A stretch of DNA of 64,000 bases from Acidobacteriota bacterium (GTDB taxonomy: Bacteria > Acidobacteriota > UBA6911 > RPQK01 > JAJDTT01): assembly GCA_965222655.1 (NCBI GenBank), contig CBDCUP010000022.1, forward strand, positions 1,802,955 through 1,866,954, given 5' to 3'. Within the stretch, counting starts at the first letter, position 1, and every line of letters starts with the position of its first letter. Positions 1,224 to 61,266 of the stretch are shown here, piece after piece. The position numbers were made by a program, and so were the translations under genes. The notes below the pieces were generated by a model. It did no database searches and was not told the origin of the DNA. It saw only the letters and a list, made by a program, of their open reading frames with translations.

Positions 1224-1842
1224 GGTTGGCTCCCCTGCTGACTCAAGATCCCAGTCCGAGCGATCGTGGGCATATTGTAGCAGGCTTCAAAGAGGAGGCC
1301 CTGACGGGACCGGGCGACGCTATCCCTTCCAGAGGCTCCCTCTCGAGCTGGACAGAAAGGGTTTGTAAAACGTCACGATTGAGGAGCCAATTCTTTCAAT
1401 AACTTACCCCGATCGTCTGAACCTCGTCAACCGAGATCTCCAGCTTCTCAAGTCCATGTTGAACCTGATACAGCTCCCTTGAGTCTGATCGCACGTTTTA
1501 CTCATTCTTGATGTGTTGATACGCTTGACAGAGATGCTGAGGTCATCCCATCGTCGCGAGTCTATTGTGGTCTCCAGGCCGCCGCGGCGACCACAGACAC
1601 TACCGGTCAATAGGCAGGATTGCCTGCCTTATGTCTCGCGATAAAAGGTGGCGCCGATGTAGCCGAGGGTGACGGCGCTGTTGGAGAAGCCGGCGAGCTG
1701 CGAAATGTCCGCTTCGCGCTGCGATCCTGCCTGGGTGGTTGACCGATCGGCTTCACAGAGGTACCAGGAGGTCAGGATCCTTCCATCAGGCAACATGTAA
1801 AGCATTCCATAAATACGGTCACTAGAGAAGAGAATCAGTGAT

Positions 1843-3054
1843 ATGAAGCGATTTCGAAGCCAAGACTCGACCTCAGCCCTGGACTCGGATGGCGCTGGCG
1901 AAAAGCTGAGCCGGCGAGGCTTTTTCGCTGGGGTCCCCGGGGGGCTACTCTTAAGTCGGATCGGCGGAACGGCACCTGGAGGAAGCCAGAAAGAGTCCTC
2001 GCCGCCTGCGATCCAAATCAAGACCCGGGAGGGAGAAGAACTTCCTGTTGTTCTGCATCCACTCGATCGCCAGATCTGGGAGGAAGAACTCTCTGGGTTC
2101 GTTCCCCAAAGAGTCTTCGACGCCCATTGCCACATGTACCGGCGCGAGTTCGATCTGAATTATCGAGCGGCCCTCAGTAGCCGAACTGATTTCACCGCCG
2201 AAACGGTTTGGAGGGACTGCGACCTGGAGGTCGTAAAGACTGCGGAAAGTGTGTTGATGCCAGGATGCAAGATCACCCGCCTGGCCTTTCCCTTCCCTTT
2301 CCGGCGATGCGACTTTGAAAGTTCCAACCAATTCATCGCCGCCGAGATCGAAAAGGAACACGGATCGGCCGCCCTCATGTTGGTCGAACCAGCGATGTCA
2401 TCCGAGCAGGTGGAGAAGACAATCCTTCGACATCGTCTGCTTGGACTGAAGCCGTATCCCAGGTACTGCCTAAGGCAAGAGTGTCGGATCACTGATTTTC
2501 TGCCCGAGCACCAGATAGCCATCGCCGACCGCTACGGCCTTTTGATCATGCTTCACGTGGGAATGAAGAAGTCTTTTGCCGATCCGAGGAACCTGGACGA
2601 CCTGCTGAGACTGACGGGGAAATACCCGCGAGCCAAGTGGATCCTGGCCCACGGTGCCAGGAGCTTTGCTCCTTTTCCGATCGAGAAGGCAGCGCCGAAG
2701 CTGCGAGGCATCCCCAACATCTGGTACGAAGTTTCGGCCGTCTGTGCGATGGAGTCCTTCGATGCCCTGTTCTCAGGAGTGGAGATCGATCGGATCCTCT
2801 ACGGTGCGGATTCAGGGGACGTAGGATTCGGACGTGGAAAAATCGTCTTTTACGGGAAGAGCTGGGGTGATCTGACTCCCCGTACCAACAATCTCGGGGG
2901 TCAGTTGACCTTCTATCTCTACGAACAGCTGCGAGCGATGCGGAAGGCGGCCCTTCGCATCGGCCTGACCCGGCAGCAGATCGAAGACATCTTCTTCACA
3001 ACCGCGGATCGGCTGGTTGGTTCGGTGGCCCAAGCGCTGGGAAGACGAGATTGA
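1843..3054 (+). CDS. Tat-exported amidohydrolase-2 family metal-dependent hydrolase
   Basis: Twin-arginine motif SRRGFFAG. HxH metal motif FDAHCHMY. Length and TIM-barrel hydrolase-like composition. Confidence 0.6.
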   Translation: MKRFRSQDSTSALDSDGAGEKLSRRGFFAGVPGGLLLSRIGGTAPGGSQKESSPPAIQIKTREGEELPVVLHPLDRQIWEEELSGFVPQRVFDAHCHMYRREFDLNYRAALSSRTDFTAETVWRDCDLEVVKTAESVLMPGCKITRLAFPFPFRRCDFESSNQFIAAEIEKEHGSAALMLVEPAMSSEQVEKTILRHRLLGLKPYPRYCLRQECRITDFLPEHQIAIADRYGLLIMLHVGMKKSFADPRNLDDLLRLTGKYPRAKWILAHGARSFAPFPIEKAAPKLRGIPNIWYEVSAVCAMESFDALFSGVEIDRILYGADSGDVGFGRGKIVFYGKSWGDLTPRTNNLGGQLTFYLYEQLRAMRKAALRIGLTRQQIEDIFFTTADRLVGSVAQALGRRD

Positions 3055-3382
3055 GCACACTTGGAAGCCAGGCCATTCACCACCAGGTCTCTCCCTGGGC
3101 CAGGTCGAGGAGGCCGAGGGAGTGTGCTCGGGTCGGGCTCGGCTGGCCAGGTTCATGTAGGGCAGCTCCAGGATCTTTAACATCGACGAGATTCACCGAC
3201 GTCGGTCTCCTGGGTACGCCGCGAATCAACAGGTTGGTTGGGCCCAGGGGGGGCCTTCGCGGTTGATTGTGACGATCTGACCCCTTGCCTGACGCGAACG
3301 GACCAGCCTGGCACCTACCGATGGAGGCGCAATACAGAATCCAATTTGGCAATCAACCCAAGCCGCTGATACTCGTTCGTTG

Positions 3383-4672
3383 TCAGTCTCCCGGCTGCGA
3401 TGCGGGAGCGTTCTCCAGATGCCAGAACAGCGCCCGTATCCCCAGCCAGGGGCAATCTCCCGGTTGATCTCCCTGGACACAGGGGCTCTTCGGATCCTCG
3501 TAGTATCGCTTCAGCGACTCCTCCTCCCAGTATGCATAGACCGTAAGGAAATGGTTGGGAGACAGCTCAAGCATCGGGGCGGTGAAGGAAACAGTGGGAG
3601 GGGGACTTAGGAGTTCGAACCCTTTCGACCGATTCAGAAGGCGGCTTCCACTGCGGCTTCCGTCCACCCAGCTCCGGCCGCCATCCAGGCTGATGCGCAC
3701 GACCCGGCGCCCGTCCTTCTGGCCCACGCCGGAGGCCACAACGACGGTGTCACTGGTGGTCCACAGGATCGTCGCCCGGTGGCTATAGTAACCCAGATAG
3801 CTGCCGGGCACTTCGCGAAAGGAGCGGCCTCCGTCGGTCGACTCCAGCAGCAGCGCACCCTTCCAGGGCCAGGCGGTGCCCGGCGGTACTCCGGCCGCCT
3901 TCTCCTCCGCGGCCGCGTCCTGGCCTCTCAGGGGCGGGCGCTGCAGTCGTGTCACTGCCAATAGGTGGTCCGGGTCGTTGGGATCTACTGAATAGCCGGT
4001 TTCGGCAACATGCTGGTGCACTTCAGTCGGATCACCCCAGGTCTTCCCTCCATTCGCAGAGCGTATGAGCGTCTCGTGAAAGCCCGGCCGAGATTGATCT
4101 TCCTGCTGATAGTCCCCATGATCCTGGTAGCGCAGGCCGACGCCCAGCACCATGGTGCCGTCGGGGCGCTGAAAAAAGGTGTTGTAGTCGTTGTAGCAGA
4201 AGCTAAACGGATGCTTGGGGGCGCCCGGAGCCAGGTTGGCATAGTCGATCGAGGTCTGGGTCCAGGTGAGACCAGCGTCCTCGGAAAGCGACACAGACAG
4301 ATCCTTGCCGCCAGGGGATTGGTGCATCAACCACAGACGCCCGTCGCGGCTCACGCCCACACCGTGGAGGATCTGTTTGTCCGGTGTCTCCGAGAGATCC
4401 ACGGGTAGTCTCTTCCAGGTCTCGCCCAGGTCGCCGCTGGTCAGAAGGCCCTGGGTCTGGGTCCTCAGGTAAATCGTGCCGTCGGGATGGCGGACCATGC
4501 CCAGCATCTCGTGGGTCAGGCCTGTTTCCGGGCTCGGCTCGACCACGTTCAGCTGCTTGTCGATCTTGATGAAGACCCGCTCCGGATCGAGCTTCTGCTG
4601 GGCAGGTGGCGCGGTGCAGGCGGCGATCAAGACAACGACCGGCAGAGTACCGGTGACCAGATGGAACCTCAT
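3383..4672 (-). CDS. BNR/Asp-box repeat sialidase-like lipoprotein
   Basis: Signal peptide with Cys (LIAAC). Four Asp-boxes: SEDAGLTW, SANGGKTW, STDGGRSF, SLDGGRSW. Confidence 0.7.
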   Translation of the reverse strand: MRFHLVTGTLPVVVLIAACTAPPAQQKLDPERVFIKIDKQLNVVEPSPETGLTHEMLGMVRHPDGTIYLRTQTQGLLTSGDLGETWKRLPVDLSETPDKQILHGVGVSRDGRLWLMHQSPGGKDLSVSLSEDAGLTWTQTSIDYANLAPGAPKHPFSFCYNDYNTFFQRPDGTMVLGVGLRYQDHGDYQQEDQSRPGFHETLIRSANGGKTWGDPTEVHQHVAETGYSVDPNDPDHLLAVTRLQRPPLRGQDAAAEEKAAGVPPGTAWPWKGALLLESTDGGRSFREVPGSYLGYYSHRATILWTTSDTVVVASGVGQKDGRRVVRISLDGGRSWVDGSRSGSRLLNRSKGFELLSPPPTVSFTAPMLELSPNHFLTVYAYWEEESLKRYYEDPKSPCVQGDQPGDCPWLGIRALFWHLENAPASQPGD

Positions 4673-4929
4673 GGCGTTGTCCCCCCTATTGGAATCTCTT
4701 GTCAGAGCAGCATATCATCCTCAGGCGGAAAGTCTATCTGGGCCGGCCCCGGGCGTGATAGTCCGTTGCGTCGGACAAGCCCACCCCGACCGCCGGCGGG
4801 GCTTCTATTTCAGATCCCACCGCTTGAGCGATGACCGGCGGCCGAAGTTCAATTTCGGCTGGTGCAGGAGCACCAGTTTGCGGGAGCTGAGGTGAGCGTG
4901 CGGCGCTGGGTGCGGGAATGGAAAGCCGC

Positions 4930-7164
<2,235 letters not shown>

Positions 7165-7764
7165 CTATTTTTCCCAACCTGCTCTGTATACAAGGATCAT
7201 GAATCCTTGAAAAGTGATGATGTACACGCCGTACATGCCCCGAATAATCTCAACTCGACCTCATCGATCGCACTCAAGTGGTAATCGGAATCCTTCAATT
7301 CTCGATTGGACTTCCCAAAGTTTCGTAGACACTCTGCTGACTATACTGAGGCAGCGATCAGGAATGTAAGGCAAGCAGCGCTGAATTCGTGGGTCTGGCA
7401 ACCGTTGAGTTCTGCCATCGTACAACTCCTTATGATGAAACGGGATGAATAACGCCGCCCATAGACGATACCGCAGCTTGGCGTGAAACATCAATGCAGA
7501 GGTGCTTTAGTGTCCCCATCGGGGATGGTGAAACCCCTCGCTTTGACGCGAAGAGAAGGTCCCCGAAGTCCCGCAGGGACGGTAGGGTGATCTTCAAGTG
7601 AGTTGAAAACGGAAGAGTCGGTCTCTGGACGTGGCTTTGGTCTCCAGGCCGAAGTGTACCGGTCGAGCGTAGCTCGACCGACGCGGTGTGTAGGTCGGGG
7701 GTGAGAAGTGCGGGCCAGGTCGGGTTCCCGATCGAGTCCCGTCTCAAAGAGTCTCAAAACTCAT

Positions 7765-10562: not shown

Positions 10563-10700
10563 GGGCGCAAGGCTCCCTACCCTTGCCCTTGCCCTTGCCT
10601 TCACCCTCAAACTTGCCTTTGCCTGTGCCTTTGGCTTCCCCATTCCCTCGCCCCGCCCTTGCCTTTCGGACCTGTGCAAGTCGCTGGATAGGGGACCACG
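10563..10700. repeat. Imperfect heptamer repeats (cccttgcc / cctttgcc) between convergent genes
   Basis: Read directly: 'cccttgcccttgcccttgccttcaccctcaaacttgcctttgcctgtgcctttggc...'. Confidence 0.5.
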
Positions 10701-12851: not shown

Positions 12852-15764
12852 TCAGGGCCCGCAGTCGACCACTACCTCTGCAAGGATGGGGGAATTGCCG
12901 CCGTCGGGAGAGGTCAGGATCGCCCGGTATTGCAGCCAGTCGTGATCCTCGGGGACAGCGGAGAGGGTCTGGCCGGATTCCAGATAGAAGGACTCGCCAT
13001 CCCGGGGACCCCTCCAGCGGGAGGATTCCAGATCCCGCTGGTTCGGAGCCGTCCTGACCTGGAACTTGAGCCCCGTCCCCAGAGGGGTCTCCCCCGACCA
13101 GCTCAGCCGCAGGAAACGGCTGCCAGAGGGAGCCTGGACCGGCACTGACAGGTAGTCCCATTCGGGTTTGCGGGTGTAGATGTTGCCGGCGTCTACCATG
13201 GCATCCAGGTGGACTCCGACGGTGGGCAGATGAGTGCGATCGGACCAGGAGAAACCAGTGGACGAGCCCCAGTAGATGTTGGTCCCGGCGCCGTGGTCGA
13301 AGTCGACCTGGTGGTTGGAGACGACCAGGTCCACCCAGCCATCCCGATCGAGGTCCAGGGAATCGATCGCCGAAGAGGACGACGCCCTCAGAAGACTGCG
13401 ATTCTGAGTGCCGTAGCCGCGCCCACCATCTCCCCAGTAGATGAAGGCGGGAAGGTCCCGGGTAGTGCCCGACTTGTAGTTGCTGAGAGCAATGTCCAGA
13501 TCTCCATCGTTGTCCAGGTCAGCCACCGTGGCATCCAGGCTGGTGAACCCTTCGAGCGGGGTCGGTTTCTCTGCCTGCAGTCCCTCGGGACCGCCCCAGT
13601 AGATGAGGCCCGGTCCATCCACATCCCGGTACCTGGGACTTGCACTGCTGGTGAAGATCAAGTCCAACCAGCCGTTCCGGTCCAGGTCGGCCGCGACCGC
13701 GTGGGCGGCGCCATGGGCCTCGATGAGGAGCCGATTGTCAGGCCCGTAGCCCTCGTCGCCACCCCAATAGATCTCAGAGTAGTCCGCGTAGCTCATGGGA
13801 AAGATCAAGTCCAGGTAACCGTCACGATTCAGGTCGGCGATGGCGTTGGATTCCAGCTCCTTTCGGCTGAGGTCCCACTGGGTGGTTCTGGGATTCTCGA
13901 AGCGCCCCTCTGCTCCCCAGATGATGGTGCCCCGGGCGGTGTTGCGGCCCGCTGCGGGGCCGATACTCAACAGCAGATCCAGATAGCCGTCCCGGTTCAG
14001 GTCGGCCACGCTGCTGCTGCCGGGCGGGGGGAGGTCCAGGCGAGTTCGCGAATCAGTGCTGTAACCCTGGGGACTGCCCCACCAGATGGCCGGGCCATCA
14101 CTGTGGGTCAGGAACAGGTCTGGGAAGCCGTCGTCGTCCAGATCGGCGATGCTGTGCTCCATCATGGCGCCTGGTTCCAGCAGGCTGGAGGAGGTCGTGG
14201 AGTAGCGGTGTTCGGAGTTTCCCCAGAAGATGGAGGTGGGGAGCAGGCCTCGGCGGCCGCTGTGGTGGCTCACCAGAAGGATATCCAGGTATCCGTCGGC
14301 GTCCAGGTCGGAGACACCGGATCCGATGACACCAAATCCGCTGAGGAGACTGCGCCGGTGTTTCGAGAAGCCCTGGGCGCTGCTCCAGTAGATGTAGGAA
14401 GGGGCGTCGCTGCCCCGATCGTCGCGACTGTTTCCGAAGAGCAGGTCGGGGAGACCATCCCGGTTCAAGTCGGCAGCCTGTACGGTGGTCGCGGCGAGGG
14501 TAGGTAGACGCGTCCTGTCCGCTGGCGAGAAGCCGTGTGGAGATGCCCAGAAAATGTCAGATGGCGGCGGCGGGCCGGAGCGTCTCCCCTCATTTGCGAA
14601 TACCAGATCGGCTCGACCGTCCCCATTGAGATCAGCCACAGCCAACCCCTTGCAGGACTCCGCGGGAAGGCGGAGCGCGCGGTCCAGGCGCAACCCGTCG
14701 GGTGAGCCGTAGAGCACGACACCGCTGTGCGAGCCGGCGGCCACCAGATCGGAGAACCCATCGCCGTCCAGGTCGGAGGCCAACAGGGTGGTCATGCCGC
14801 TGGGGAAACCCCTTTGTGTCTTCTCCTCGGGCTGCAGCAACAGATCCTGGCGCTCCAGGACCAGGCGTCTCTGCGGAGTGTAGCTGTCGCTTCCATCGCC
14901 CCAGTAGACGAAACAGCTCTGAACCTGGCTGTCGTTGTTGGCGAAGGCCAGATCCAGGTTTCCGTCTCCGTTGAAGTCTCCGATGGCCACGTCCTCGGCA
15001 CTGATGCTGGGGATCGAGCTCCGGCTATTGGGGTCGAATCCCCGCACATTCCCCCAGTAGACGTAGGACTCCAGGTGGAGTCGTAGTCCCAGGCTTTCTC
15101 CCAGCTCATCCCCTCGGTTGGCCAGGACCACATCCAAGTGGCCGTCCCGATTGAGGTCTCCCACCGCCACGCCGCCGGCTCTGAGGGCGGGCAGCTCGAG
15201 CCGCTTCGTGGGGCTGAAGCCGGCGGATCCGCCCCAATAGATGTAGGCATTCTGATCGGGACGATAGTTGTGCATGAAGTTGGTGAAGACGATGTCCTGG
15301 TATCCGTCTCCATTGAGATCGGCAATCCGACTCCGCCCTCCCCCCTGGCTGGGCAGGCGGGTGATCCTGGAGGCGGCACTCTCCAGTGCCTTCAGGATGG
15401 AGAAGGGTGCCCGCAGCTCCCAGCCGTCGGGGAGCAGGGACTGATAACCCCCAGGACCTCCCCAGTAGATGAGAGAGTCGGGATTGTAGACGCTGTCATG
15501 ATCCTGGGTGAAAACCAGGTCCAGCTCAGCGTCCAGGTTCAGATCCCAGCGGTTGATGGTCTGGAGTCTTCCGCCGCGGGAGACGTACAAGTTGGCTCCC
15601 GAGTCTCCGGCGCGGCCCAGGGACAGGTCGTCGAAGCCGCGGTGACGGATCTGACTGGAGCCAGCCTGGATGGAGAGCGCTGCAACCCACAGCATGGCGC
15701 TCGACACCAGGACCAACCTCAAGCGGGAACTTCTGGGAGAGTCATGGCTGGCTAAAGGATTCAT
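12852..15764 (-). CDS. FG-GAP/VCBS repeat (ASPIC/UnbV-like) secreted protein
   Basis: 970 aa with signal peptide. Many DxNxDGxxD repeats (DLNGDGYQDIV, DFNGDGNLDL, DLDGDGFSDL, DLNGDGRADLV, DLNRDGLPDL...). Confidence 0.75.
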   Translation of the reverse strand: MNPLASHDSPRSSRLRLVLVSSAMLWVAALSIQAGSSQIRHRGFDDLSLGRAGDSGANLYVSRGGRLQTINRWDLNLDAELDLVFTQDHDSVYNPDSLIYWGGPGGYQSLLPDGWELRAPFSILKALESAASRITRLPSQGGGRSRIADLNGDGYQDIVFTNFMHNYRPDQNAYIYWGGSAGFSPTKRLELPALRAGGVAVGDLNRDGHLDVVLANRGDELGESLGLRLHLESYVYWGNVRGFDPNSRSSIPSISAEDVAIGDFNGDGNLDLAFANNDSQVQSCFVYWGDGSDSYTPQRRLVLERQDLLLQPEEKTQRGFPSGMTTLLASDLDGDGFSDLVAAGSHSGVVLYGSPDGLRLDRALRLPAESCKGLAVADLNGDGRADLVFANEGRRSGPPPPSDIFWASPHGFSPADRTRLPTLAATTVQAADLNRDGLPDLLFGNSRDDRGSDAPSYIYWSSAQGFSKHRRSLLSGFGVIGSGVSDLDADGYLDILLVSHHSGRRGLLPTSIFWGNSEHRYSTTSSSLLEPGAMMEHSIADLDDDGFPDLFLTHSDGPAIWWGSPQGYSTDSRTRLDLPPPGSSSVADLNRDGYLDLLLSIGPAAGRNTARGTIIWGAEGRFENPRTTQWDLSRKELESNAIADLNRDGYLDLIFPMSYADYSEIYWGGDEGYGPDNRLLIEAHGAAHAVAADLDRNGWLDLIFTSSASPRYRDVDGPGLIYWGGPEGLQAEKPTPLEGFTSLDATVADLDNDGDLDIALSNYKSGTTRDLPAFIYWGDGGRGYGTQNRSLLRASSSSAIDSLDLDRDGWVDLVVSNHQVDFDHGAGTNIYWGSSTGFSWSDRTHLPTVGVHLDAMVDAGNIYTRKPEWDYLSVPVQAPSGSRFLRLSWSGETPLGTGLKFQVRTAPNQRDLESSRWRGPRDGESFYLESGQTLSAVPEDHDWLQYRAILTSPDGGNSPILAEVVVDCGP

Positions 15765-15849
15765 GTCCTACTTTCTACCAGATCCGAATGGGGTAGGAAA
15801 CCGCAGGCTCTGGAAACTGCGACGTTCAAAGGTTCCGACGAGTCGTTCG

Positions 15850-16410
15850 AGTTTCAGCTTAGTGTCCCCCAGGAAGCCCTGGCCCCATTCGAGAAAGAAA
15901 CTTCGGTTGTCCCTAGCCACGAGCATCGATAGCAGCGTGTCCGTTGTAGGACGGGCACTCCTGCCCGTCGAGGACACCGACGGGCAGGAGTGCCCATCCT
16001 ACGAAGATCACGGCCTGTGTCAACTGGAGGCTCTTGAATGATCTTCTCGTCAATGAAGTTTCAGCTTAGTCCCGCCCCCACCGAGTTGGCCCCATTCGAG
16101 AAAGAAATTTCCGCCATTTCTAGCTACGAACATCGAGAGCTGAGTGACGCTTGTAGGACGGGCACTCCTGCCCGTCGAGGACACCGACGGGCAAGAGTGC
16201 CCGTCCTACAGGTCACTGCTCTTTCAGATGCTGTTTCCTACACCTTCTGCAAATGAAGTTTCAGCTTAGTGTCCCTCCGTGGCGCTGCCCCATTTCAAGA
16301 AAAAGACTTCAGTCGAGGGACGTGGGGGTGGCCTCCAGGCCGCCGTATTCCTTCCGTCGAGCCTTTGGCTCGAAAAACGGCGGCCTGGAGGCCACCCCCA
16401 CCGTCTTCAG
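15850..16410 (+). repeat. Tandem array of three ~200-bp hairpin-core MITE/REP-like units delimited by 'aatgaagtttcagcttag'
   Basis: Unit ends at 15850-15862, 16052-16069 and 16251-16269. Cores: gtaggacgggcactcctgcccgtcg palindrome (15956-16002 and 16153-16209) and gtgggggtggcctccaggccgccg palindrome (16322-16400). Confidence 0.8.
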
Positions 16411-16432
16411 ACAATTGTTTGAGAAATGCGGG

Positions 16433-18058
16433 CTAGAGGCTTTCCTTTTTACCTGGGTACACGACTCCACTCTCTCCCCGAGGATCGGACCCTCCGTCAA
16501 GCTTGCCATCCTCCCCCAGGATCACCAATTGGGCCAGGGCGCGCCTGGGGGCGAGGGAAGCCGGGTCCTGGACCACGGTAAAACCCTTCTCTCGCAGCGC
16601 CTCGCAGGTGTCCGATCGGGTGCGAGCCTCGCACCAGATCGTGGTGCCTTCGGCATGGATTCTAGGGGCCGAGACCGCCTCCACTGCAGTCATCCCGAAC
16701 TCCACCACATTGGTAAAGACCTGGGCCAACGCGCTCAGAATGGCATTTCCCCCGGGCGCACCCAGGATCAGGGCCGGCTTCTTCTCCTTGAAGACGATCG
16801 TCGGCATCATCAGGTGCATCCGCGCCTTTCCCGGCGCCAGCGAGCTGGCATGGCCCGGACGCGGGTCGAACCGGTTCATCGCGTTGTTGTAGATGAATCC
16901 CAGCCCCGCGGTGATCACCCCGGAGAACCCTCCCAGGCTGTGGGTGATAGCGGCTACATTTCCATCCTGATCCACTACGGTCAGGTGAGTGGTGTCCGGC
17001 TCAGCATAGGCTGGAGCTGTTCCCCCGACCACACCCTGGAGCACGGCTTGCCGGAGCTGCTGGGCTCGCTTCCTGGATGTCAGCACCCTCCCCGGAGCTT
17101 CCCCAACGACTTCGGGGTCTCCCAGGAAATCGCGCCGGTCCTGGTTCACCAGCTGCAGCGTCGCTCCAACATAGCTCAGGTACTCGACGCCCCCGTGTTC
17201 CAGCCTCGCCAGATCCAGACCCTCGAGAACATTGAGGGCTTCTTGAAGCAGATAGCCCGCGCCCGGAGGCCGGTTGGAGAACACCTCGAAGCTCCGGTAT
17301 CCGGATGACGTCGGAGCATACGAGCGCGTCTCATAAGATCGGAGGTCTTCTCGGGTCACGAAAGCCCCGTTCTTCTCCAGGTCCTGGGCGATCGTCCGGC
17401 CGAGCTCGCCCTGATAGAAATCTTCGGGACCGTGGGTCGCAAGCCGTTCCAGGGTATTGGCGTAGTCCGGATTGCGGATGATGGCGCCTTGCGTGAAAGG
17501 AGATCCATCTGGCTGGAGATAGATACGGGTACAGTCCGGGGTGGCCTGTATCCGGGTGACCGTGTCCGGTTCGATCTGCTCATCCCGCCTTGCATACAGG
17601 CTCTCCAATTGAGGTGTGACAGGGAAGCCTTCACGCGCGATGCCACAGGCAGGCTGAAGTAGGTCTGCCCAGGGCAGTGAACAATGGCGTCGATGGATTT
17701 CGGCCAGACCAGCCACGGTAGCGGGCGTGCAGATAGAAGTATATCCCATCGTGCTGCGGTGGCCCTCGAACAAGCTGCTCCCGCTCAGATCGGCCTCGCC
17801 AAGATAGTCCGGAGCCCACATTCCTGGGCTTACCAGGGAGCCGGCACGAACGCATCCATCGATGATCCGATGCTCTCTTTCTGCGGGAGCCCATAGGTGG
17901 GCGGAGATCATACCGCCGAGACCGCAGCTGAAAGGGCTCACGATCATCTGCACAAACGCCGTAGCGACGGCAGCATCGAATGCGTTGCCTCCTGCTTCCA
18001 GTACCTTGGCCCCTGCTTCGGCAGCACGGGGGTGCACACAGGTCACGATACCTCTCAT
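16433..18058 (-). CDS. ggt: Gamma-glutamyltransferase family protein
   Basis: ORF 16433..18118, likely start MRGIVTCVH. Thr nucleophile context ...AEPDTTHLTVVDQDGNVAAITHSLGGFSG.... No signal peptide. Confidence 0.8.
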   Translation of the reverse strand: MRGIVTCVHPRAAEAGAKVLEAGGNAFDAAVATAFVQMIVSPFSCGLGGMISAHLWAPAEREHRIIDGCVRAGSLVSPGMWAPDYLGEADLSGSSLFEGHRSTMGYTSICTPATVAGLAEIHRRHCSLPWADLLQPACGIAREGFPVTPQLESLYARRDEQIEPDTVTRIQATPDCTRIYLQPDGSPFTQGAIIRNPDYANTLERLATHGPEDFYQGELGRTIAQDLEKNGAFVTREDLRSYETRSYAPTSSGYRSFEVFSNRPPGAGYLLQEALNVLEGLDLARLEHGGVEYLSYVGATLQLVNQDRRDFLGDPEVVGEAPGRVLTSRKRAQQLRQAVLQGVVGGTAPAYAEPDTTHLTVVDQDGNVAAITHSLGGFSGVITAGLGFIYNNAMNRFDPRPGHASSLAPGKARMHLMMPTIVFKEKKPALILGAPGGNAILSALAQVFTNVVEFGMTAVEAVSAPRIHAEGTTIWCEARTRSDTCEALREKGFTVVQDPASLAPRRALAQLVILGEDGKLDGGSDPRGESGVVYPGKKESL

Positions 18059-18244
18059 CAATCTCCTCCTGATCCTCAGACGGAAAGGAACCCTTCGATT
18101 TGCCCTCGGCGGGCACAAAGAGAAACCTATTCACGCTTTCGAGGAACTGAGCGTCTCAACGCGAGCGGTCCATAGAGTTGCTGAAGCCGTTAATAGTCAC
18201 AATACTGCGAGCATTTGGCCCCGTGCGCCGACCGTGTCTTGCTC

Positions 18245-21609: not shown

Positions 21610-23178
21610 ATGTCTTCATTTGGCCGCTTTCCTGCAGGCCCGGATACAACCCCTCCCACCTCCATCAGCCCGCGAGAGAAATGGCTGACCACGTTCACGG
21701 TGCTGTTCGGAGCCGCCATGGTAACGACGGACATGAGCATCGTCAACGTGGCGCTTCCCCATCTGATGGGGGCCTTCGGGGAGACACAGTCGGCAATTAC
21801 CTGGGTTGCAACGAGCTATATCCTCGCCGCCGTGGTCTCCTTGACCCTGGCCGGCTGGCTCTGCACGGCCTTCGGACGTAAGCGGGTCTACCTGGTCAGT
21901 TTCCTCGTCTTCATCGCAGCCTCGGGTCTGGCAGGTGCGGCTCAGAGCTTCCCCCAGATGATCTTCAGCCGGACGCTCCAGGGCATCGGCGGCGGAGCCC
22001 TGTTTCCCATCAGCATGGCAATCGTGCGGGAGAGCTTCTCGCCTCGGGAACGGCCCATGGCCATGGCCCTCTATGGAATGGCCATCATGCTCGGAACCGG
22101 AGCGGCGCCGGTGCTGGGAGGCTGGATCGTCGAAAACTATGGCTGGCCCTGGATCTTCTACATCAATCTGCCCACAGGGATCCTGGGAATCTATTTGGTC
22201 AGGACCTACATCAAGGATCCCATCTACCTGAAGCGCGGACTGGAGCGAATCGACTGGGTGGGCATCCTCCTGCTGGCGGTGGGCCTTACCGCCACCCAGG
22301 TCGTCTTGGAGAGAGGGCAGGAAAATGACTGGTTCGAATCGAGGTACATTGCGATGGGGGCCTTGCTGGGAACGGTGGCGCTACTGACGCTGATTTTCCA
22401 GCAACTTCGCTCACCCGAGCCGGTGATCAACCTGCGTCTCCTGAGCGACAGTACCCTCGCCGCCGGGTGCCTCATCGGCGTGACCGTGGGAATGACCTAC
22501 TACGGACTGACCTTTATGCTCCCTCAGTTCACGCAGAATCTGCTGGGCTATCCTCCTCTGCAATCGGGAATCGCTCTGCTACCGAGGGTCGCCGCGCACA
22601 TCATGGTCATGCCGGTAGCGGGTTGGTTGTACCATCGGATCGGACCCGTGACCTCTTCGATACTGGGATTATTGATCCAGGTCTGGAGCTTCCGCCAGCT
22701 ATCCCAACTCTCCTTGGAGGCAGGACTGTCGACCCTGGCTCCCATCCTGATGCTGACGGGTATGGGCCTTCCCTTCATCCACGTCGCCGTCTCCACGGCG
22801 ACCTTCGACCGGACCCGGCAGCAGGACATGACGGAAGCCTCCAGTCTGTTCAGCCTCTCCTACCATTTGGGAGCGAACCTGGCTTATGCGGTGATATCGA
22901 CGGTGGTGGCCAGGCGTACCCTCTTTCACCGCCTCAGCCTGGTATCTCAGATCAGCCTCTTCAACACAGCCTACCTGGAAACCAGTCAGACGCTACAGGA
23001 ACAGATGACCGACTCCCTGTCGGGCCTGGCCGAAGAAAAAGCCTTGGCGCTCACTGACTCCCTGGTCAACATCCAGTCCTCGGCGCTCGCCTACAACGAC
23101 GTCGCCTTGCTGCTGTCGCTCATCACGCTGGCGGCTGTGCCCTTCTGCCTGCTGCTGAGACGACGAGAGAAATCCTAA
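21610..23178 (+). CDS. MFS transporter, DHA2 (EmrB/QacA 14-TMS) drug:H+ antiporter family
   Basis: 522 aa, 14 hydrophobic segments, MFS signature region GRKRVYLVSFLVFIAAS. Confidence 0.75.
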   Translation: MSSFGRFPAGPDTTPPTSISPREKWLTTFTVLFGAAMVTTDMSIVNVALPHLMGAFGETQSAITWVATSYILAAVVSLTLAGWLCTAFGRKRVYLVSFLVFIAASGLAGAAQSFPQMIFSRTLQGIGGGALFPISMAIVRESFSPRERPMAMALYGMAIMLGTGAAPVLGGWIVENYGWPWIFYINLPTGILGIYLVRTYIKDPIYLKRGLERIDWVGILLLAVGLTATQVVLERGQENDWFESRYIAMGALLGTVALLTLIFQQLRSPEPVINLRLLSDSTLAAGCLIGVTVGMTYYGLTFMLPQFTQNLLGYPPLQSGIALLPRVAAHIMVMPVAGWLYHRIGPVTSSILGLLIQVWSFRQLSQLSLEAGLSTLAPILMLTGMGLPFIHVAVSTATFDRTRQQDMTEASSLFSLSYHLGANLAYAVISTVVARRTLFHRLSLVSQISLFNTAYLETSQTLQEQMTDSLSGLAEEKALALTDSLVNIQSSALAYNDVALLLSLITLAAVPFCLLLRRREKS

Positions 23179-53531: not shown

Positions 53532-56500
53532 ATGTGGATGGGCTACCGTCTAGAATCTGAGGTGCGCAGGCTTCCTGCCCTGGTTGTTTTTCTCTCCGTC
53601 CTGACGGCTCAGGGGACAAGCCTAGGGCTGGCAGCGTCGTCATCCCCAATCTCCTCGATACTGGACCGTTGTGTTTCCTGCCACCGAGGGAAGGCGGCAC
53701 AGGCGAGCCTGGATCTGAGCTCCCGTAGGGGAGCCCTCGAAGGCGGATCCTCGGGCCCCGCGCTGGTGCCGGGCCATGCCACCAGGAGTCTGCTCTTTCA
53801 AAAGTCTTCTGACGGGAAAATGCCGCCAGGAGCTCCCCTGAGCACTGCGGAGATTGTAGCCCTGCGGCTCTGGATCGATGAGGGGGCCGCCTGGCCCGAT
53901 CTGAAAACTGACTTGCCGGCTCAAGAAGCAGCGTCCGAGGGGCCCACCTGGTGGTCTCTCCGTCCCCTCGGACCGGCCAAGGTGCCGGACGTATCCCACG
54001 CTTCCTGGATCCGGCGCCCTTTGGATACCTTCGTGCTGAGGGGGCTGGAAAACCAGGGATTGGAGGCTTCAGGCGAGGCCGACAAGGTGACGCTGATCCG
54101 GCGAGCGACACTGGATTTACTGGGACTACCTCCCACACCCGAGGAGATCGATGACTTCGTCGGCAACGCATCTCCCCGGGCCTATGAGCAGCTCCTGGAC
54201 CGGCTGCTGGCTTCGCCTCACTATGGCGAGCGTTGGGGACGCCACTGGCTGGACCTGGCCCGCTTCGGTGAGAGTCATGGATATGAAAGGGACCAGATCC
54301 GGGATAACGCCTGGCCCTATCGCGACTACGTCATTAGCAGCTTCAACCAGGACAAACCCTATCCCCGGTTCGTGAGAGAACAATTGGCGGGAGACGTCCT
54401 GGAGCCGGTGACCCGAGAAGGTATCGCCGGCACGGGCTTTCTGGTGGCCGCTCCCTGGGACGACGTCGGGCACACGCAGCAGAGTCGCATTATGAGGGCT
54501 CGCGTCCGGGCGGATGAGATGGAGGACATCGTGGGGACCGTGGCCCAGACGTTCCTCGGTATGACGGTTAACTGCGCCCGCTGCCACGATCACAAATTCG
54601 ATCCCATTTTGCAGAAGGACTACTACCGTTTGAAGGCTGCATTGGATGGAGTCTGGCACGGGGATCGGACCCTCTTCGAGGCCGCCGAGGCGGAGGAGCG
54701 CCGCCGCCGAGTGGAGCCCCTGCAGAGGCGGATCCGCGAGTTGTCGAGTGAGGTCGCTGCCCTTCATGAATCTGCGAGGCAGAGGATCCTCAAACGGAAG
54801 GCCTACCCGATGTTGGCTCAGGTACCCGGTCTTCTGTCTCGCTGGGCCTTCGACGCGGACGCCTACGACCAGCTGGGCGGGCTTCACGGGAACCTGGACA
54901 GCGACGCCGTCATCGATGACGGCGGTCTCCAGTTCAAGCAGGAAAGAGCTCGGTTCACCACCATGCCTCTGCAACAGGATCTGAGAGAGAAGACCCTGGA
55001 GATCTGGCTGCGCATGGAAGATCACGCTGGGTATGGGTTTTACATGACGGTCCTGGGTGAGGGGCCGACGTCCAGGGGGGTGTTCGACGGACTACGCTAT
55101 GACGGGGGCTCCCGGACCTGGAAGAGCGAGAGCGAATTCAACAACCGGACTCTTCAGGTCGAGAAAGCCCACGAGGCGGAGGGTCTTTCCGAGCCGCTTC
55201 ACCTGGCCATCGTCTACGGTCCTCAGGATCGGATCTCGATCTACCGTGAGGGGAAGCTTTACACCAGCTACGGCCCCCAGCGGGAAGGATCCGAGACGAA
55301 GCTTCAGGTTTTTCGGGCCGGGAAGGATAGGGTCAGGTTCGGCAGGTTGGAAGGAGGAGGACAGATCGACGAGGCCCGTCTCTACGAGAGAGCCTTGACG
55401 GCAGAGGAGGTCCAGCGCTCCTATCGAGGCGGCATCCACAACGTTACCCGCTCAGAAGTGCTCGAGGAGCTGAGTGACGAAGAGGGGCGCCAAAAGGACT
55501 TGCTGTTGGAGGAACTGGTCCGCCGGCAGGCAGATCTGGAGAGGGTTCCACCGATTCCCCTGGCTTATGCTGCCAACTCTCTTCAACCCGGACCGACCTT
55601 TGTCCAGAACCGCGGTGATCCCGCTGCGCCCGGTGAGCGGGTGCTGTCAGGGGGACTCTCCGGCGTGTCCACCCTCTCACCCGAGTTCGGACTCGCCGAG
55701 AATGCGCCGGAAGCCCAGCGCCGTCTACGTCTGGCGGAATGGATCGTGGACCCCGACAATCCCCTGACCAGCCGTGTTCTGGTCAACCGGGTCTGGCAAT
55801 ATCACTTCGGACGAGGCATCGTCGGGACGCCCAACGATTTTGGTTTCAACGGAGAGCGGCCCTCCCATCCCGAGCTGCTGGACTGGCTGGCGCGTTGGTT
55901 CATCGATCACGGTTGGAGTCTGAAGGCCTTGCACAAGGAGATCATGCTCTCCAGCAGTTATCGCCAGTCCTCCCGCTTCCGGGAGGCGGCTGCAGACAGA
56001 GATCCGGAGAACAGGCTTCTGTGGAGGTACTCCCCGCGTCGTCTCGAAGCTGAAGTGATCCGTGACGCCCTCCTGGCCACCAGTGGCGAGCTGAACTGGA
56101 AGAGGGGAGGGCCTGGCTTCCGTCCCTTCGAAGTCCGGATCTTCAACACTCACTTCTATGATCTGAAAGATTTGGACGAGGCCGAGATGAAGAGGCGCAG
56201 CGTGTACCGGATCGTCGTCCGATCCGCTGGGGACCCTCTCCTGGAGTCCTTCGACTGTCCCGACTCGGCCTTCAAGGCTCCCCGGCGCGGTATCACGACT
56301 ACTCCCCTGCAGTCGTTGGCACTGATGAACAACTCCTTCGTCCTGCGCCAGGCAGATCGGCTGGCACAGCGGATCGAGGGTGAAGCGGTTGGAGTATTGC
56401 CGATTCAAGTGGATCGCGCCTACCGACTCACGCTGGGCCGGATTCCTCGAGGGGAAGAAGCAAGCAGGGCTCTCGCTCATATCCAGAGGCATGGTCTGGA

Positions 56501-56552
56501 GAGCCTCTGCTGGGCCCTCTTCAATTCCAGTGAGTTCCTCTATCTCAACTAA
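53532..56552 (+). CDS. PSCyt1 (Planctomycete cytochrome c-like) + DUF1549 + DUF1553 domain protein
   Basis: Start MWMGY...signal peptide. CVSCHRGKAAQASLDLSS (PSCyt1). ...WIRRPLDTFVLRGLE... (DUF1549). C-terminal ...FDCPDSAFKAPRRGITTTPLQSLALMNNSF (DUF1553). Confidence 0.8.
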   Translation: MWMGYRLESEVRRLPALVVFLSVLTAQGTSLGLAASSSPISSILDRCVSCHRGKAAQASLDLSSRRGALEGGSSGPALVPGHATRSLLFQKSSDGKMPPGAPLSTAEIVALRLWIDEGAAWPDLKTDLPAQEAASEGPTWWSLRPLGPAKVPDVSHASWIRRPLDTFVLRGLENQGLEASGEADKVTLIRRATLDLLGLPPTPEEIDDFVGNASPRAYEQLLDRLLASPHYGERWGRHWLDLARFGESHGYERDQIRDNAWPYRDYVISSFNQDKPYPRFVREQLAGDVLEPVTREGIAGTGFLVAAPWDDVGHTQQSRIMRARVRADEMEDIVGTVAQTFLGMTVNCARCHDHKFDPILQKDYYRLKAALDGVWHGDRTLFEAAEAEERRRRVEPLQRRIRELSSEVAALHESARQRILKRKAYPMLAQVPGLLSRWAFDADAYDQLGGLHGNLDSDAVIDDGGLQFKQERARFTTMPLQQDLREKTLEIWLRMEDHAGYGFYMTVLGEGPTSRGVFDGLRYDGGSRTWKSESEFNNRTLQVEKAHEAEGLSEPLHLAIVYGPQDRISIYREGKLYTSYGPQREGSETKLQVFRAGKDRVRFGRLEGGGQIDEARLYERALTAEEVQRSYRGGIHNVTRSEVLEELSDEEGRQKDLLLEELVRRQADLERVPPIPLAYAANSLQPGPTFVQNRGDPAAPGERVLSGGLSGVSTLSPEFGLAENAPEAQRRLRLAEWIVDPDNPLTSRVLVNRVWQYHFGRGIVGTPNDFGFNGERPSHPELLDWLARWFIDHGWSLKALHKEIMLSSSYRQSSRFREAAADRDPENRLLWRYSPRRLEAEVIRDALLATSGELNWKRGGPGFRPFEVRIFNTHFYDLKDLDEAEMKRRSVYRIVVRSAGDPLLESFDCPDSAFKAPRRGITTTPLQSLALMNNSFVLRQADRLAQRIEGEAVGVLPIQVDRAYRLTLGRIPRGEEASRALAHIQRHGLESLCWALFNSSEFLYLN

Positions 56553-56791
56553 GCTGAAACTCGATTGGTTAGGAGATCATGCAAGAGCCGCCAATGACAG
56601 AGCCGTGACTGCGAAGGAGCGGGTCCGGCATACGGATGCCGGAAACAACGCACCAAACGGACGGTGGCCCGTTGGACCCCATTTGCCGCATGTTCCGATC
56701 GGTGATCGGTACCGCTCCAGTCACGGCTCTGTCAGAAGCGGTAGCGACAATCACGGCAAACGTAACCGAAGTTTCTTTCCCAAATGGGGCC
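56549..56791 (-). repeat. MITE/REP-like unit with the gccaatgacagagccgtgactgc core, overlapping the stop codon of the DUF1553 gene
   Basis: 'ctaagctgaaact' at 56549-56561 contains stop taa 56550-56552. Ends 'gaagtttctttcccaaatggggcc' 56768-56791. Confidence 0.8.
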
Positions 56792-56819
56792 ACGCTGCCC
56801 GGGGGAGACTGAACTGAAA

Positions 56820-58271
56820 ATGAAGACGAAATCGAGTCTCGCTGAAATTCCTCTTCTGCCCCGGCGCCACTTCCTGTTGGGAGCAGGCAGTGGGCTGGGG
56901 GCCCTCGCTCTGGCTTGGCTCCTGCATGACGAGGGCCTCGGCAGAAGTCTTGGCAAAGGGGGGAAGTTTGGGTCCAGGCAGCCCCATTTTCCAGGCCGGG
57001 CCAAGCGGGTGCTGCACATCTTCGCGTCCGGTGGCGTCAGCCACCTGGATACGTTCGATTACAAGCCAGATCTGGCCAAACACGACGGAAAGGCCCTGAC
57101 CAACAAGGGCGAGATTGACACCTTCTTCGGCAAGCCTGGGAATCTGATGAAGTGTCCCTGGACCTTCCGCAAACGAGGCCAGAGCGGTCTCTGGGTCAGT
57201 GATCTTCTGCCTCACCTGGCCAGCTGCGCCGATGAGCTCTGCCTGATCCAATCGATGGTGGCCAAGAGCTCCAATCACACCCCCGCCACCTTCCAGATGA
57301 ACAGCGGATTCGTGCGCAATGGCTTTCCCTCAATGGGCTCCTGGATCTCCTACGGTCTGGGAGCGGAGAGCCAGGATCTGCCTGCATTCGTCGTCCTTCC
57401 TGATTCCAGGGGCCTGCCTGCCGGCGGTTCTATCAATTGGACGGCTGGATTCCTTCCAGCTGCCCAACAGGGCGTGGCTTTCAGGCACACCGGCGACCCC
57501 ATTCCAGATCTCAAGACCCCCGAAAGCGTTTCCCCTGATCGTCGCCAGGCAGAGATGGAGCTCGTAACCCAGATGAACCGGGAGTACCTGGAAGCCTATC
57601 CCGGGGACTCTACTCTGGAGGCGCGACTCCGGTCCTACCAACTGGCCGCCCGGATGCAGTTGAGCGTGCCCGATATCGTGAGCCTCAAGGACGAAGGCCC
57701 GGAGGTCCAGAGACGATATGGTCTGGATCACGAGGTGACGGCTGGGTTTGGCCGGAACTGCCTTCTCGCCAGAAGGCTCCTGGAGCGTGGAGTTCGCATG
57801 GTTCAAGTCTGGAGTGGAGGCGCCTTCGGGAAGCCCCGTATCAACTGGGATGCCCACGAGGATATCGTGGAGAACCACGGCAACCAGGCGGCAACAATGG
57901 ACAAGCCCCTGGCCGGACTATTAACGGATCTGAGAGAGCGGGGGATGCTGGAGGACACGCTGGTGGTATGGTCCACCGAGTTTGGCCGAACACCGGTTAC
58001 CCAGGGGTTCGGAGCCACCGGCCGGGATCATCACCAGCACGCCTTTACCTGCTGGCTGGCGGGCGCTGGCGTCAAGAAAGGTTTCTCCTACGGGATCACC
58101 GACGAAGTGGGCTACAATGTCGCCGAGAATCCCGTGACCGTCTATGATTTCCATGCCACCATCCTCCACCTGCTGGGTCTGGACCACAAGAAGCTCACCT
58201 TCTACCACAACGGAATCCAGCGTCGTCTGACCGATGTCCACGGGCATGTTGTGGAGGCTCTGCTGGGCTGA
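56820..58271 (+). CDS. DUF1501 (sulfatase-fold) Tat-exported protein, partner of the DUF1553 protein
   Basis: Start MKTKSS...PRRHFLLGAGSGLGALA (Tat). ORF 56784..58271 trimmed because the first codons lie in the repeat. Confidence 0.8.
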   Translation: MKTKSSLAEIPLLPRRHFLLGAGSGLGALALAWLLHDEGLGRSLGKGGKFGSRQPHFPGRAKRVLHIFASGGVSHLDTFDYKPDLAKHDGKALTNKGEIDTFFGKPGNLMKCPWTFRKRGQSGLWVSDLLPHLASCADELCLIQSMVAKSSNHTPATFQMNSGFVRNGFPSMGSWISYGLGAESQDLPAFVVLPDSRGLPAGGSINWTAGFLPAAQQGVAFRHTGDPIPDLKTPESVSPDRRQAEMELVTQMNREYLEAYPGDSTLEARLRSYQLAARMQLSVPDIVSLKDEGPEVQRRYGLDHEVTAGFGRNCLLARRLLERGVRMVQVWSGGAFGKPRINWDAHEDIVENHGNQAATMDKPLAGLLTDLRERGMLEDTLVVWSTEFGRTPVTQGFGATGRDHHQHAFTCWLAGAGVKKGFSYGITDEVGYNVAENPVTVYDFHATILHLLGLDHKKLTFYHNGIQRRLTDVHGHVVEALLG

Positions 58272-58281
58272 CAGAAGTAGA

Positions 58282-60756: not shown

Positions 60757-60766
60757 GATAGCTGAA

Positions 60767-60995
60767 CCATTCGAGAAAGAAACTGTGCTCACCCCTGCCA
60801 TGATTGTCGCTACCGCTTCTGACAGAGGAGCGGTCCCGATCACCGATCGGGACATGCTGCAAGAGGAGGCCAATCGGCCACCGTCCGTTTGGTCCGCTAT
60901 TTCCGGCATCCGTATGCCGGGACCGCCCTTTGCAGTCCCATCTCTGTTATTGGCGGTTCTTGGGTGACCTCCTAGCCAAATGAAGGTTCAGCTTG
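60767..60995 (+). repeat. MITE/REP-like unit (gccaatgacagagccgtgactgc family, opposite orientation) directly after the oxidoreductase stop
   Basis: Begins 'ccattcgagaaagaaact' 11 nt after stop 60754-60756. Ends 'aatgaaggttcagcttgg'. Confidence 0.75.
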
Positions 60996-61220
60996 GGATT
61001 CCAGCATCAACTGCTCCCCTTGATGGGGTGGGTGGGCAGGTGAAGATCTCGTTGACAGTGAACGGACCCTCTGCGATCATCGGTCAGATACGCAGGTAGC
61101 AACGAGTTTTCGTTCCCCACTTCCTGTCCTAGCAGCCTGTCGGACTTAACTCGAAGACAGGTAAGCCACTGGTTTGACCAGTGAGACTTTAAAGGTTTGA
61201 CATTTAGATTCAGTAATAGG

Positions 61221-61261: not shown

Positions 61262-61266
61262 AAAGT

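Follow-up and report, generated by a model that had tools for sequence, protein, structure and literature searches.

Introduction

Repetitive extragenic palindromic (REP) sequences with a GTAG tag, and the REPINs in which two of them are paired head-to-head into a long hairpin, are known from Pseudomonas, Stenotrophomonas and Escherichia coli, together with the REP-associated tyrosine transposases (RAYT, also called TnpA-REP). A survey lists tagged REPs in eight phyla, and Acidobacteria are not among the nine phyla or superphyla named in its accessible text (PMC3733652). In this study, a tandem array of hairpin-bearing repeat units was analysed in a stretch of 64,000 nucleotides from an Acidobacteriota bacterium (assembly GCA_965222655.1, contig CBDCUP010000022.1, positions 1,802,955 to 1,866,954), hereafter the window, to which the coordinates refer. 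The array consists of copies of an abundant non-coding repeat family, specific to a group of mostly marine Acidobacteriota related to UBA6911. This family is no new kind of system but a lineage-specific version of the REP repeats and bacterial interspersed mosaic elements (BIMEs) which E. coli and Pseudomonas are known to have. The family was not found described in literature searches, nor were any such repeats in Acidobacteriota.

The cores of the units share with GTAG-tagged REPs and REPINs the tag, the 8-bp stem, the 4-nt loop and the head-to-head pairing into long hairpins, and both are extragenic, of high copy number and located mainly in convergent and co-directional spacers. Termini which give stop codons to the flanking open reading frames (ORFs) are also common to both, according to the accessible text of the survey (PMC3733652). 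Unlike REPINs, most dimers here lie within a conserved, asymmetric frame of 60-70 nt that is common to unrelated cores, the units are stacked strictly head-to-tail, and no RAYT was found in the window and about 1.5 Mb of fetched loci.

The BIMEs of E. coli (REP Y/Z with the RIB/RIP sites bound by integration host factor, IHF) and the mosaic regions of Neisseria are alike in joining REP hairpins with conserved non-palindromic linkers and in forming clusters downstream of genes. A recurrent linker here contains a match to the IHF consensus (AATCAATGGGTTA), at which binding is only predicted. Resemblance in sequence was not evident, with no formal comparison made, and the likeness is architectural; in BIMEs the linkers lie between alternating REPs, and here they enclose each core as a frame of two parts. 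The BOX elements of Streptococcus pneumoniae, with their boxA and boxC ends, likewise have conserved, non-identical ends and a variable interior with short internal repeats, the counterpart here being the (GACGTKC)n of one unit type (E type). Unlike in BOX, the interiors are unrelated palindromes and not one repeated module, and both sequence and host phylum differ. The palindrome-associated transposable elements (PATEs) derived from IS200/IS605 and other HUH elements (IS91, Helitron-like) are alike in asymmetric ends, a left subterminal hairpin, a 5' TYAG, the lack of terminal inverted repeats, uniform orientation and head-to-tail tandem copies. Unlike in IS200/IS605 elements, the right end here has a closing stem only and no hairpin like that of the left end, and an autonomous copy with the frame ends at its borders was not found.

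Organisation of the array

The spacer of 668 bp between two minus-strand genes, encoding an FG-GAP repeat protein and a gamma-glutamyltranspeptidase, contains three units arranged head-to-tail (Table 1). An earlier note on this DNA had described three hairpin-core units with shared ends, and the sequence at 15845-16410 is as it said; the array is longer, beginning with a leader at about 15819 and ending at 16432, where unit 3 is cut short at the gamma-glutamyltranspeptidase stop codon. All three units begin with a left module (decayed in unit 3), in which a C-rich tract is followed by a small hairpin and then by the box CCCCATTCGAGAAAGAAACTTC. Units 1 and 2 close with AATGAAGTTTCAGCTTAG, and unit 3, without right-end motif, directly abuts the stop codon. 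The FG-GAP gene has its start codon about 55 nt downstream of the leader, and many arrays at other loci are preceded by a leader of the same kind (GAGACGTGCGACGTTCAGACG...TTGAAGTTTCAGSTYAG).

The 14-mer end AAGTTTCAGCTTAG with at most 2 mismatches occurred 9 times in the window against 0.23 expected, and none of 100 shuffles reached 9. Folding had been proposed as a check, and unit 2 folded as DNA with -48.9 kcal/mol (z = -8.4 against shuffled controls), while the whole array folded as RNA gave z = -13.1 against shuffled controls. The array was absent from the output of Tandem Repeats Finder for the window, because the cores of the units are too divergent. The flanks of unit 1 are homologous to the backbone of another unit type (C type), which suggests that in this unit a C core may have been replaced by an A dimer. 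Unit 1 contains, at 16023-15996 on the minus strand, a match to a sigma-70-like promoter (TTGACA, 16 nt, TAGGAT) directed towards the FG-GAP gene; it is a consensus match only, and the promoters of the host itself may differ.

Distribution of the family

A sequence collection was scanned with the exact 18-mer end, which gave at least 93 loci (numbered L001-L093); the locus counts that follow rest on the matches listed. Among these, 88 came from five metagenome-assembled genomes (MAGs) of Acidobacteriota, namely CBDCOR, CBDCLS, CBDCMS, CAUZIZ (= 'UBA6911') and JAKZYH, so the ends are conserved well beyond the window. The other five look like chance matches, about 17 of which would be expected for an 18-mer in that collection. 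None of the listed loci overlapped the window, whose genes were 65-70% identical in DNA to some of them, which identifies the window as part of a related genome.

In the listed loci and the window together, 203 end motifs and 153 left modules were counted, and 105 of the 153 left modules were directly preceded by an end motif. The units ranged from 75 to 400 nt and fell into at least 14 core families, all within the common frame, which bears out the suggestion of a dispersed REP-type family whose ends are conserved and whose palindromic cores can be exchanged. Individual unit types recurred nearly unchanged at many unrelated loci of one MAG, for example the E type of 129 nt (copies of 106-153 nt, as the internal (GACGTKC)n varies) and the D type of 342 nt, and blocks of several units were likewise repeated. 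This means that the sequence was copied as units and not merely conserved in place.

The orientation of the units followed long single-orientation runs along CBDCOR contigs 12, 15, 21 and 22 among the loci listed; contig 12 was all plus from 729 to 952 kb, and contig 21 was nearly all minus. These runs were only weakly linked to local GC skew and were inseparable from gene-strand bias, and could reflect either replication direction or gene-strand bias.

The common frame

The frame reads in order TYAG, a C-rich tract, a hairpin of 4-5 bp (hp1), CCCCATTCGAGAAAGAAACTTC, the core, and the far end GAAGTTTCAGCTTAG. Its right boundary is sharp, directly after CTTAG. On the left, a TYAG precedes the units, which is usually the end of another unit and often degenerate (TTTCAGGTCAG); the 48 left modules preceded by unique DNA still mostly followed TTAG, TCAG or CTAG. 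The match AATCAATGGGTTA to the IHF consensus, which is proteobacterial and may not fit this host, was found at a fixed position in 14 units.

The hairpin hp1 occurred as CCAGC/GCTGG, CCGGC/GCCGG and CCAGG/CCTGG, and it is supported by covariation. In an alignment of 48 sequences its central pair (columns 17-27) was A-U in 24, G-C in 13 and G-U in 10; 87.5% of the hp1 cells were paired against 79% in shuffles (none of 500 reached this), and at most 45% when the partner was slid. RNAalifold returned no structure for the left module because of register shifts in the alignment, and the helix was then tested directly. In addition, GAAACTTC of the left module is complementary to GAAGTTTC of the right end and could close the unit as one large stem-loop. 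This closing stem is almost invariant, so covariation is not applicable, with one compensated example: a minimal unit of 60 nt in L021 reads GAAAGTCGGC...GCCGACTTTC.

The frame ends TSSCSCCCC... on the left and ...GAAGTTTCAGCTTAG on the right are not complementary, and there are no terminal inverted repeats. The earlier suggestion of a miniature inverted-repeat transposable element (MITE) therefore fails in the strict sense, and the many single units that have TCAG on the left and TTAG on the right argue against simple duplication of the target site. A DDE transposon, for example of the IS5 family, could also have given rise to a conventional MITE, which would duplicate a YTAR target (TTAG); the junction TTAG would then be the target-site duplication. 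Nearly all units have TYAG at the left and TTAG as right end, an IS5-like DDE transposase gene is present in the window (62000-63463), and a true inverted-repeat element with TTAG on both sides was inserted in the terminal TTAG of the frame. Against this stand, besides the two features of the ends just given, the conservation of about 10 nt before the right TTAG (GAAGTTTCAGC), which makes this TTAG part of the element, and the uniform orientation within arrays and in regional runs along contigs. A DDE-derived origin is thus quite improbable.

REP dimers as interchangeable cores

The units of the window have cores of three types. Type A consists of GTAGGACGGGCACTCCTGCCCGTCG dimers, type B of GTRG...GGCCTCCAGGCC... 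dimers that enclose an inner hairpin, and type C is about 240 nt long with an outer stem of 35 bp. The arm of the A type is composed of GTAG and GACGGGCA-CTCC-TGCCCGTC, and that of the B type of GTRG and CGGTGGCC-TCCA-GGCCGCCG, with one T-G wobble in the stem. Both thus have a GTAG/GTGG tag, an 8-bp stem and a 4-nt loop, the tag standing outside the REP's own stem (GTAGGACGGGC..., GTAGCGGTGG..., GTGGGGGTGG...), and the arms are paired head-to-head like a REPIN. The A and B cores match the GTAG-tagged REP architecture in the accessible text of PMC3733652, and the head-to-head pairing matches the REPIN architecture in that of PMC3733652 and PMC3116915. Other long palindromes also serve as cores, and the E-type core resembles a CGTC-tagged hairpin on the other strand (cf. 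PMC3733652).

A metagenome scan with the A-type REP gave at least 120 loci, and 258 A-type arms, including 109 head-to-head A dimers, were present in the fetched DNA of the matches listed. The REP stood in the frame in 17 of the 120 listed loci (mean G+C 57%), in another element, which has GGCGAGCGGCAG as inverted repeats and is flanked by TTA/TAA, in 43 (63%), and in neither in 60 (59%), and no listed locus held both the frame and the GGCGAGCGGCAG element. The REP dimer is therefore an independent module by which frames were colonised, and core and frame are separable modules. This does not agree with the idea of an element that passively swaps cargo between its ends, since the cores are REP dimers also found alone or in an unrelated inverted-repeat element. 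The GGCGAGCGGCAG element is centred on the A-type REP dimer and was observed in L101, L106, L110, L111, L113 and 38 other metagenome loci.

The two copies of one A core in the window (16070-16269 and 51819-52022) had been reported to differ by an exact inversion of the loop. The inversion is real, with identity rising from 186/204 to 191/204 once the loop was reverse-complemented (AGGACAC in the former, GTGTCCT in the latter); the loop has 7 nt, and the eighth base quoted belongs to the stem. The arms differ at position 16 only, with C in the left arm and T in the right one, and both copies have this difference on the same side. The inverted segment was therefore the loop, with no more than the inner 9 bp of the stem, and not the whole hairpin. 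For B-type cores, the whole segment between the arms occurred in either orientation relative to the frame, as seen when 16322-16401 of the window together with L049 and L057 was set against the CBDCOR copies. Perfect inverted arms can recombine with each other or serve in template switching, and such a flip would be the expected by-product. The cruciform route that had been proposed is one possibility and is not singled out, since either of these processes accounts for the inversion equally well.

Position at gene ends and possible role of the transcripts

Genes were called by a simple home-made codon-usage caller, and the counts of orientation and spacers are approximate. The CTTAG end faced the 3' end of a gene in 78 of 112 arrays, and in 25 arrays a stop codon lay inside the end motif (21 times the TAA of CTAAG, 4 times the TGA of CTAAGCTGA), while about 30% of the arrays were in other orientation or next to the 5' ends of genes. 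Convergent spacers were enriched (32/102 against a background of 18%) and divergent spacers depleted (11/102 against 19%). For the tandem spacers (n=59) the CTTAG end pointed towards the upstream gene in 40 and away from it in 19.

When both strands were folded as RNA, the one running in the direction of the upstream gene was the more stable in 50 of 62 units (median difference 5.6 kcal/mol) and in 11 of 14 core families, and it had more G-U pairs (475 against 309). On the same strand, UUUCUC follows the closing stem. This asymmetry fits hairpins in 3' untranslated regions (UTRs), and the elements would be transcribed as the 3' UTR of the upstream gene. REPs of E. coli protect mRNA, and the long G+C-rich hairpins and U-rich tracts here could, like them, protect mRNA or else terminate transcription. 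By this analogy we infer that the units may function as 3'-UTR hairpins. In proteobacteria, REPs are described as terminators and stabilisers in the accessible text of PMC3733652. The minus-strand REP arm nearest to the stop of the gamma-glutamyltranspeptidase gene, together with GTTTTTCGAG (GUUUUUCGAG), was scored terminator-like (16396-16379).

The units might alternatively be functional structured RNAs, either cis-acting 3'-UTR modules or small RNAs, kept by selection at the RNA level and spread by duplication or gene conversion. The better folding of the gene-co-directional strand, the location of units directly 3' of stop codons, the terminator-like REP with its T-tract, the identity of the 18-mer end across five species and the compensatory changes in hp1 all fit this explanation. 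It is hard to square a single RNA function with at least 14 unrelated cores in one frame; a copying mechanism is needed for near-identical copies at many unrelated loci; the arrays otherwise oriented or by gene 5' ends do not fit, and the wobble pairs of hp1 are on the opposite strand. Nor did Rfam covariance models give a family: the whole window had no match at the gathering score, the array region at E up to 10 only generic hairpin matches far below the threshold, and the other unit types in L007 no match, so that the units do not correspond to a known structured RNA family. Nothing supported the discrete small-RNA family that the earlier note had considered, the only RNA signal being the folding asymmetry. 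Structured RNA as the reason for the repeats is therefore unlikely.

Tandem small protein genes were also considered, which would start at the ATG of AATGAAGTTTCAGCTTAG (MKFQLS...) and be linked by ATGA overlaps of stop and start. Two ORFs of the window, 16038-16256 and one from 16253 onwards, start at this ATG, the first overlapping the next by ATGA. Over 112 copies, the ORFs from this ATG varied from 6 to 300 aa and were unrelated after residue 6, unit lengths modulo 3 were spread over the remainders 0, 1 and 2 (27, 14 and 23 units), and the spacer to the conserved box was 18 or 20 nt. This candidate was rejected, its probability being negligible.

Probable mode of spread

It is rather probable that the array represents REP/BIME-like, non-autonomous nested mobile elements, which an HUH/Y1 enzyme presumably moves and which form 3'-UTR hairpins when transcribed. 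Units would be copied whole, and at times in blocks of several, to new sites next to TYAG through single-strand transposition in trans by a candidate HUH/Y1 enzyme, either a RAYT or an IS200-like one. One favoured target would be the CTTAG end of a resident unit, giving head-to-tail arrays, and another the stop-codon region read on the opposite strand, which may account for arrays that directly adjoin a stop codon or contribute one. Four features of the units point to this kind of transposition: their ends are asymmetric, a hairpin lies just inside the left end, the flanking tetranucleotide is fixed and shows no clear duplication, and all units within an array have one orientation. The single-orientation runs along contigs likewise fit it.

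Several points weigh against such transposition, beginning with the approximate gene calls behind the gene-end counts. No RAYT or Y1 gene for the frame was found by motif, tblastn and Pfam searches in the window and about 1.5 Mb of fetched loci, a small fraction of the genomes. RAYTs are the known partners of GTAG REPs and typically single-copy, so the lack of one in 1.5 Mb is uninformative. The only Y1 gene found belongs to an IS200 copy with unrelated ends and a TAA target. Neither the comparison of orthologous sites nor the search over all fetched loci gave a pair of filled and empty sites, and accordingly it is inferred that the units move, where exactly their junction lies and that the target is not duplicated. 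The right end has no hp1-like hairpin, unlike canonical IS200/IS605 ends. Finally, the G-U pairs of hp1 are on the top strand and the cores fold better on the bottom strand, so no single active strand explains both.

When all fetched loci were screened for polymorphic insertions, the only indels met were those of introns and insertion sequences (IS), and no strain variants were on record when sought via the exact flanking proteins. The comparison of the orthologous sites in L003 and L031 was confounded by an IS insertion. Orthologues of the window gene 9048-10562 in L008 and L012 had units downstream and the window gene had none, which is a between-species difference with no clean junction. 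A run of CCCTTGCC-like short repeats was observed at 10565-10670, just past the stop of this window gene.

The IS200 copy was considered as an autonomous relative of the frame and rejected. An alignment of seven copies placed its boundaries at CTCGAAGACAGG...GTTATGACT, directly after NTAA (the ends are also given as CTCGAAGACAGGTAAGCC...GGGGACGTTATGACT, with the left flank always NTAA), which is unlike the frame ends, and its target is TAA. It is a complete IS200-type IS at 61148-61757, with a TnpA ORF at 61267-61686 (+) of 139 aa (Pfam Y1_Tnp, E = 9e-34) that has low G+C at third codon positions and is identical in 9 metagenome contigs. The IS lies about 150 nt from a repeat unit and is adjoined by the IS5-like gene (minus strand, DUF772 + DDE_Tnp_1), the two forming a small IS cluster beside unit 60763-60996.

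Two further explanations concern the stacking of the units. Site-specific recombination of the integron type or another type could stack hairpin cassettes at an attachment site, which would account for head-to-tail units with one junction sequence and variable, hairpin-folding interiors. More than 100 dispersed arrays per sampled data set were found in place of one platform, no RYYYAAC/GTTRRRY core sites were seen at the junctions (by eye, with no pattern search), the scan of 20 window ORFs, the neighbours of every array among them, gave no integrase, and the units contain no ORFs; this explanation is very improbable. The frame might instead be the landing pad of a site-specific HUH-type system which stacks interchangeable hairpin cassettes at stop codons, a doubtful proposal. 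The 18-mer identity in five species, the stop-codon register and the co-opted REP dimers are compatible with a landing pad and do not demonstrate it.

Mobile elements at the arrays

Other mobile elements target the hairpins and the TTAG end of the frame, among them a group II intron and a TTAG-flanked inverted-repeat element. The intron of CBDCOR is 2.1 kb long and present in many copies which are 98-99% identical; in L029 it covers about 1600-3700, with a reverse transcriptase ORF at 2218-3576 and RF00029 at 3580-3654, and it was also present in L027, L032, L033, L041, L052, L060, L072 and L076. In L029, where the junction was read closely, the intron joins the base of a B-type REP hairpin, and the GCGATAGGGTA junction is shared by L060 and L076. 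This hairpin seems to be a homing site of the intron, by analogy with the terminator stem-loops used by class C introns. The inverted-repeat element, a palindromic MITE, measures about 190 nt, has CCCGCATTTCTCATCGC as its inverted repeats and is flanked by TTAG at either end. It lies at 5638-5830 in L008 and at equivalent positions in L021 and L088, and in these three loci, each from a different MAG, it is inserted exactly into the frame's terminal TTAG. A 1.97-kb IS with an IS4/IS1634-like transposase was found inside a D-type unit (L002, about 1450-3420; also L005 and L071), and other high-copy IS of 1.3, 1.9 and 2.7 kb adjoin arrays in CBDCOR. With IS elements in and next to them, the arrays are hot spots for mobile elements.

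Other copies in the window

Every other site at which the earlier note had seen the family proved to be a member or a decayed copy (Table 1). Several units were in contact with the stop codon of a neighbouring gene, which for two genes was the TAA inside the CTAAG end itself. Directly beyond the array 23175-23683, a VapB/VapC (PIN) toxin-antitoxin pair was observed at 23899-24494 (-). A 95-nt direct repeat was also present at 4856-4950 and 24968-25062, 95% identical and 20 kb apart; the two ORFs at the second copy had no Pfam match, and the ORF 4918-5424(+) over the first copy was not scanned.

Table 1. Repeat units of the window, their parts and the genes that flank them
Feature	Position	Strand	Remarks
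FG-GAP repeat protein gene	12852-15764	-	970 aa; flanks the array; start codon 15764
Leader	15819-15862	+	GACGTTC-like short repeats, then degenerate right-end motif GAGTTTCAGCTTAG
Degenerate end motif	15845-15862		GTTCGAGTTTCAGCTTAG
Unit 1	15863-16069	+	207 nt; A-type REP dimer core
Unit 1, small hairpin	15869-15882		CCAGG-AAGC-CCTGG
Units 1 and 2, conserved sequence	15881-15900; 16088-16107		GGCCCCATTCGAGAAAGAAA; decayed copy in unit 3
Unit 1, box	15883-15904		CCCCATTCGAGAAAGAAACTTC
Unit 1, dimer arms	15946-15970 / 15978-16002		extended hairpin 15936-16012
Unit 1, extended arms	15936-15970 / 15978-16012		35 nt, 86% complementary
Unit 1, end motif	16052-16069		AATGAAGTTTCAGCTTAG
Unit 2	16070-16269	+	200 nt; A-type REP dimer core
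Unit 2, box	16088-16109		
Unit 2, dimer arms	16153-16177 / 16185-16209		7-nt loop AGGACAC; stem reaches about 16136-16225
Unit 2, complementary arms	16152-16177 / 16185-16210		26 nt, 96% complementary
Unit 2, end motif	16252-16269		AATGAAGTTTCAGCTTAG
Unit 3, truncated	16270-16432	+	B-type REP dimer core
Unit 3, arms	16322-16349 / 16374-16401		28 nt, 96% complementary
Unit 3, inner hairpin	16357-16373		TCGAGCC-TTT-GGCTCGA
Gamma-glutamyltranspeptidase gene	16433-18118	-	flanks the array; TAG stop 16433-16435
MFS transporter gene	21610-23178		stop is TAA (23176-23178) inside CTAAG end of B-type unit
B-type unit	23175-23398	-	IHF-consensus match AATCAATGGATTA at 23218-23230
C-type unit with upstream degenerate end	23399-23683	-	unit 23399-23669, outer stem about 35 bp; end AAGTTTCAGGTCAG at 23670-23683
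Decayed B-type unit	48022-48185	+	directly 3' of stop of sulfatase gene 46258-48021
A-type unit, paralogue of unit 2	51819-52022	+	inverted 7-nt loop (GTGTCCT); begins directly 3' of TAG stop of gene 50895-51818
Decayed B-type unit	53330-53470	+	core orientation opposite to unit 3
C-type unit	56549-56820	-	unit 56549-56808, preceded by TTTTCAGTTCAG; stop of gene 53172-56552 is TAA (56550-56552) inside its CTAAG end
C-type unit	60763-60996	+	truncated left module; degenerate right end AATGAAGGTTCAGCTTGG; 7 nt past stop of gene 58234-60756
Solitary or rearranged B-type REP	1566-1595	not assigned	GTGGTCTCCAGGCCGCCG
Half B-type element	7626-7690	not assigned	REP GTGGCTTTGGTCTCCAGGCCG and inner hairpin
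Half B-type element	44925-44990	not assigned	TTGGCCTCCAGGCCG and inner hairpin remnant

Implications

The family extends REP/REPIN/BIME-type repeats to the Acidobacteriota, with an unusual architecture of two layers, a shared asymmetric frame and independent REP dimers. One REP in three contexts offers a natural test case for the movement and co-option of REP dimers. As hot spots for group II introns, IS and other MITEs, the arrays are likely break points of short-read assembly in these MAGs, and they are useful as strain-typing markers. The units overlap stop codons and fill whole spacers, and so bear on the annotation of gene ends and on ORF calling (spurious MKFQLS... ORFs). If the frame were a landing pad, it would give this acidobacterial lineage a modular, mobile toolkit of 3' UTRs and terminators, with integron-like logic applied to non-coding hairpins. 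The units probably affect the 3'-end formation of many mRNAs.

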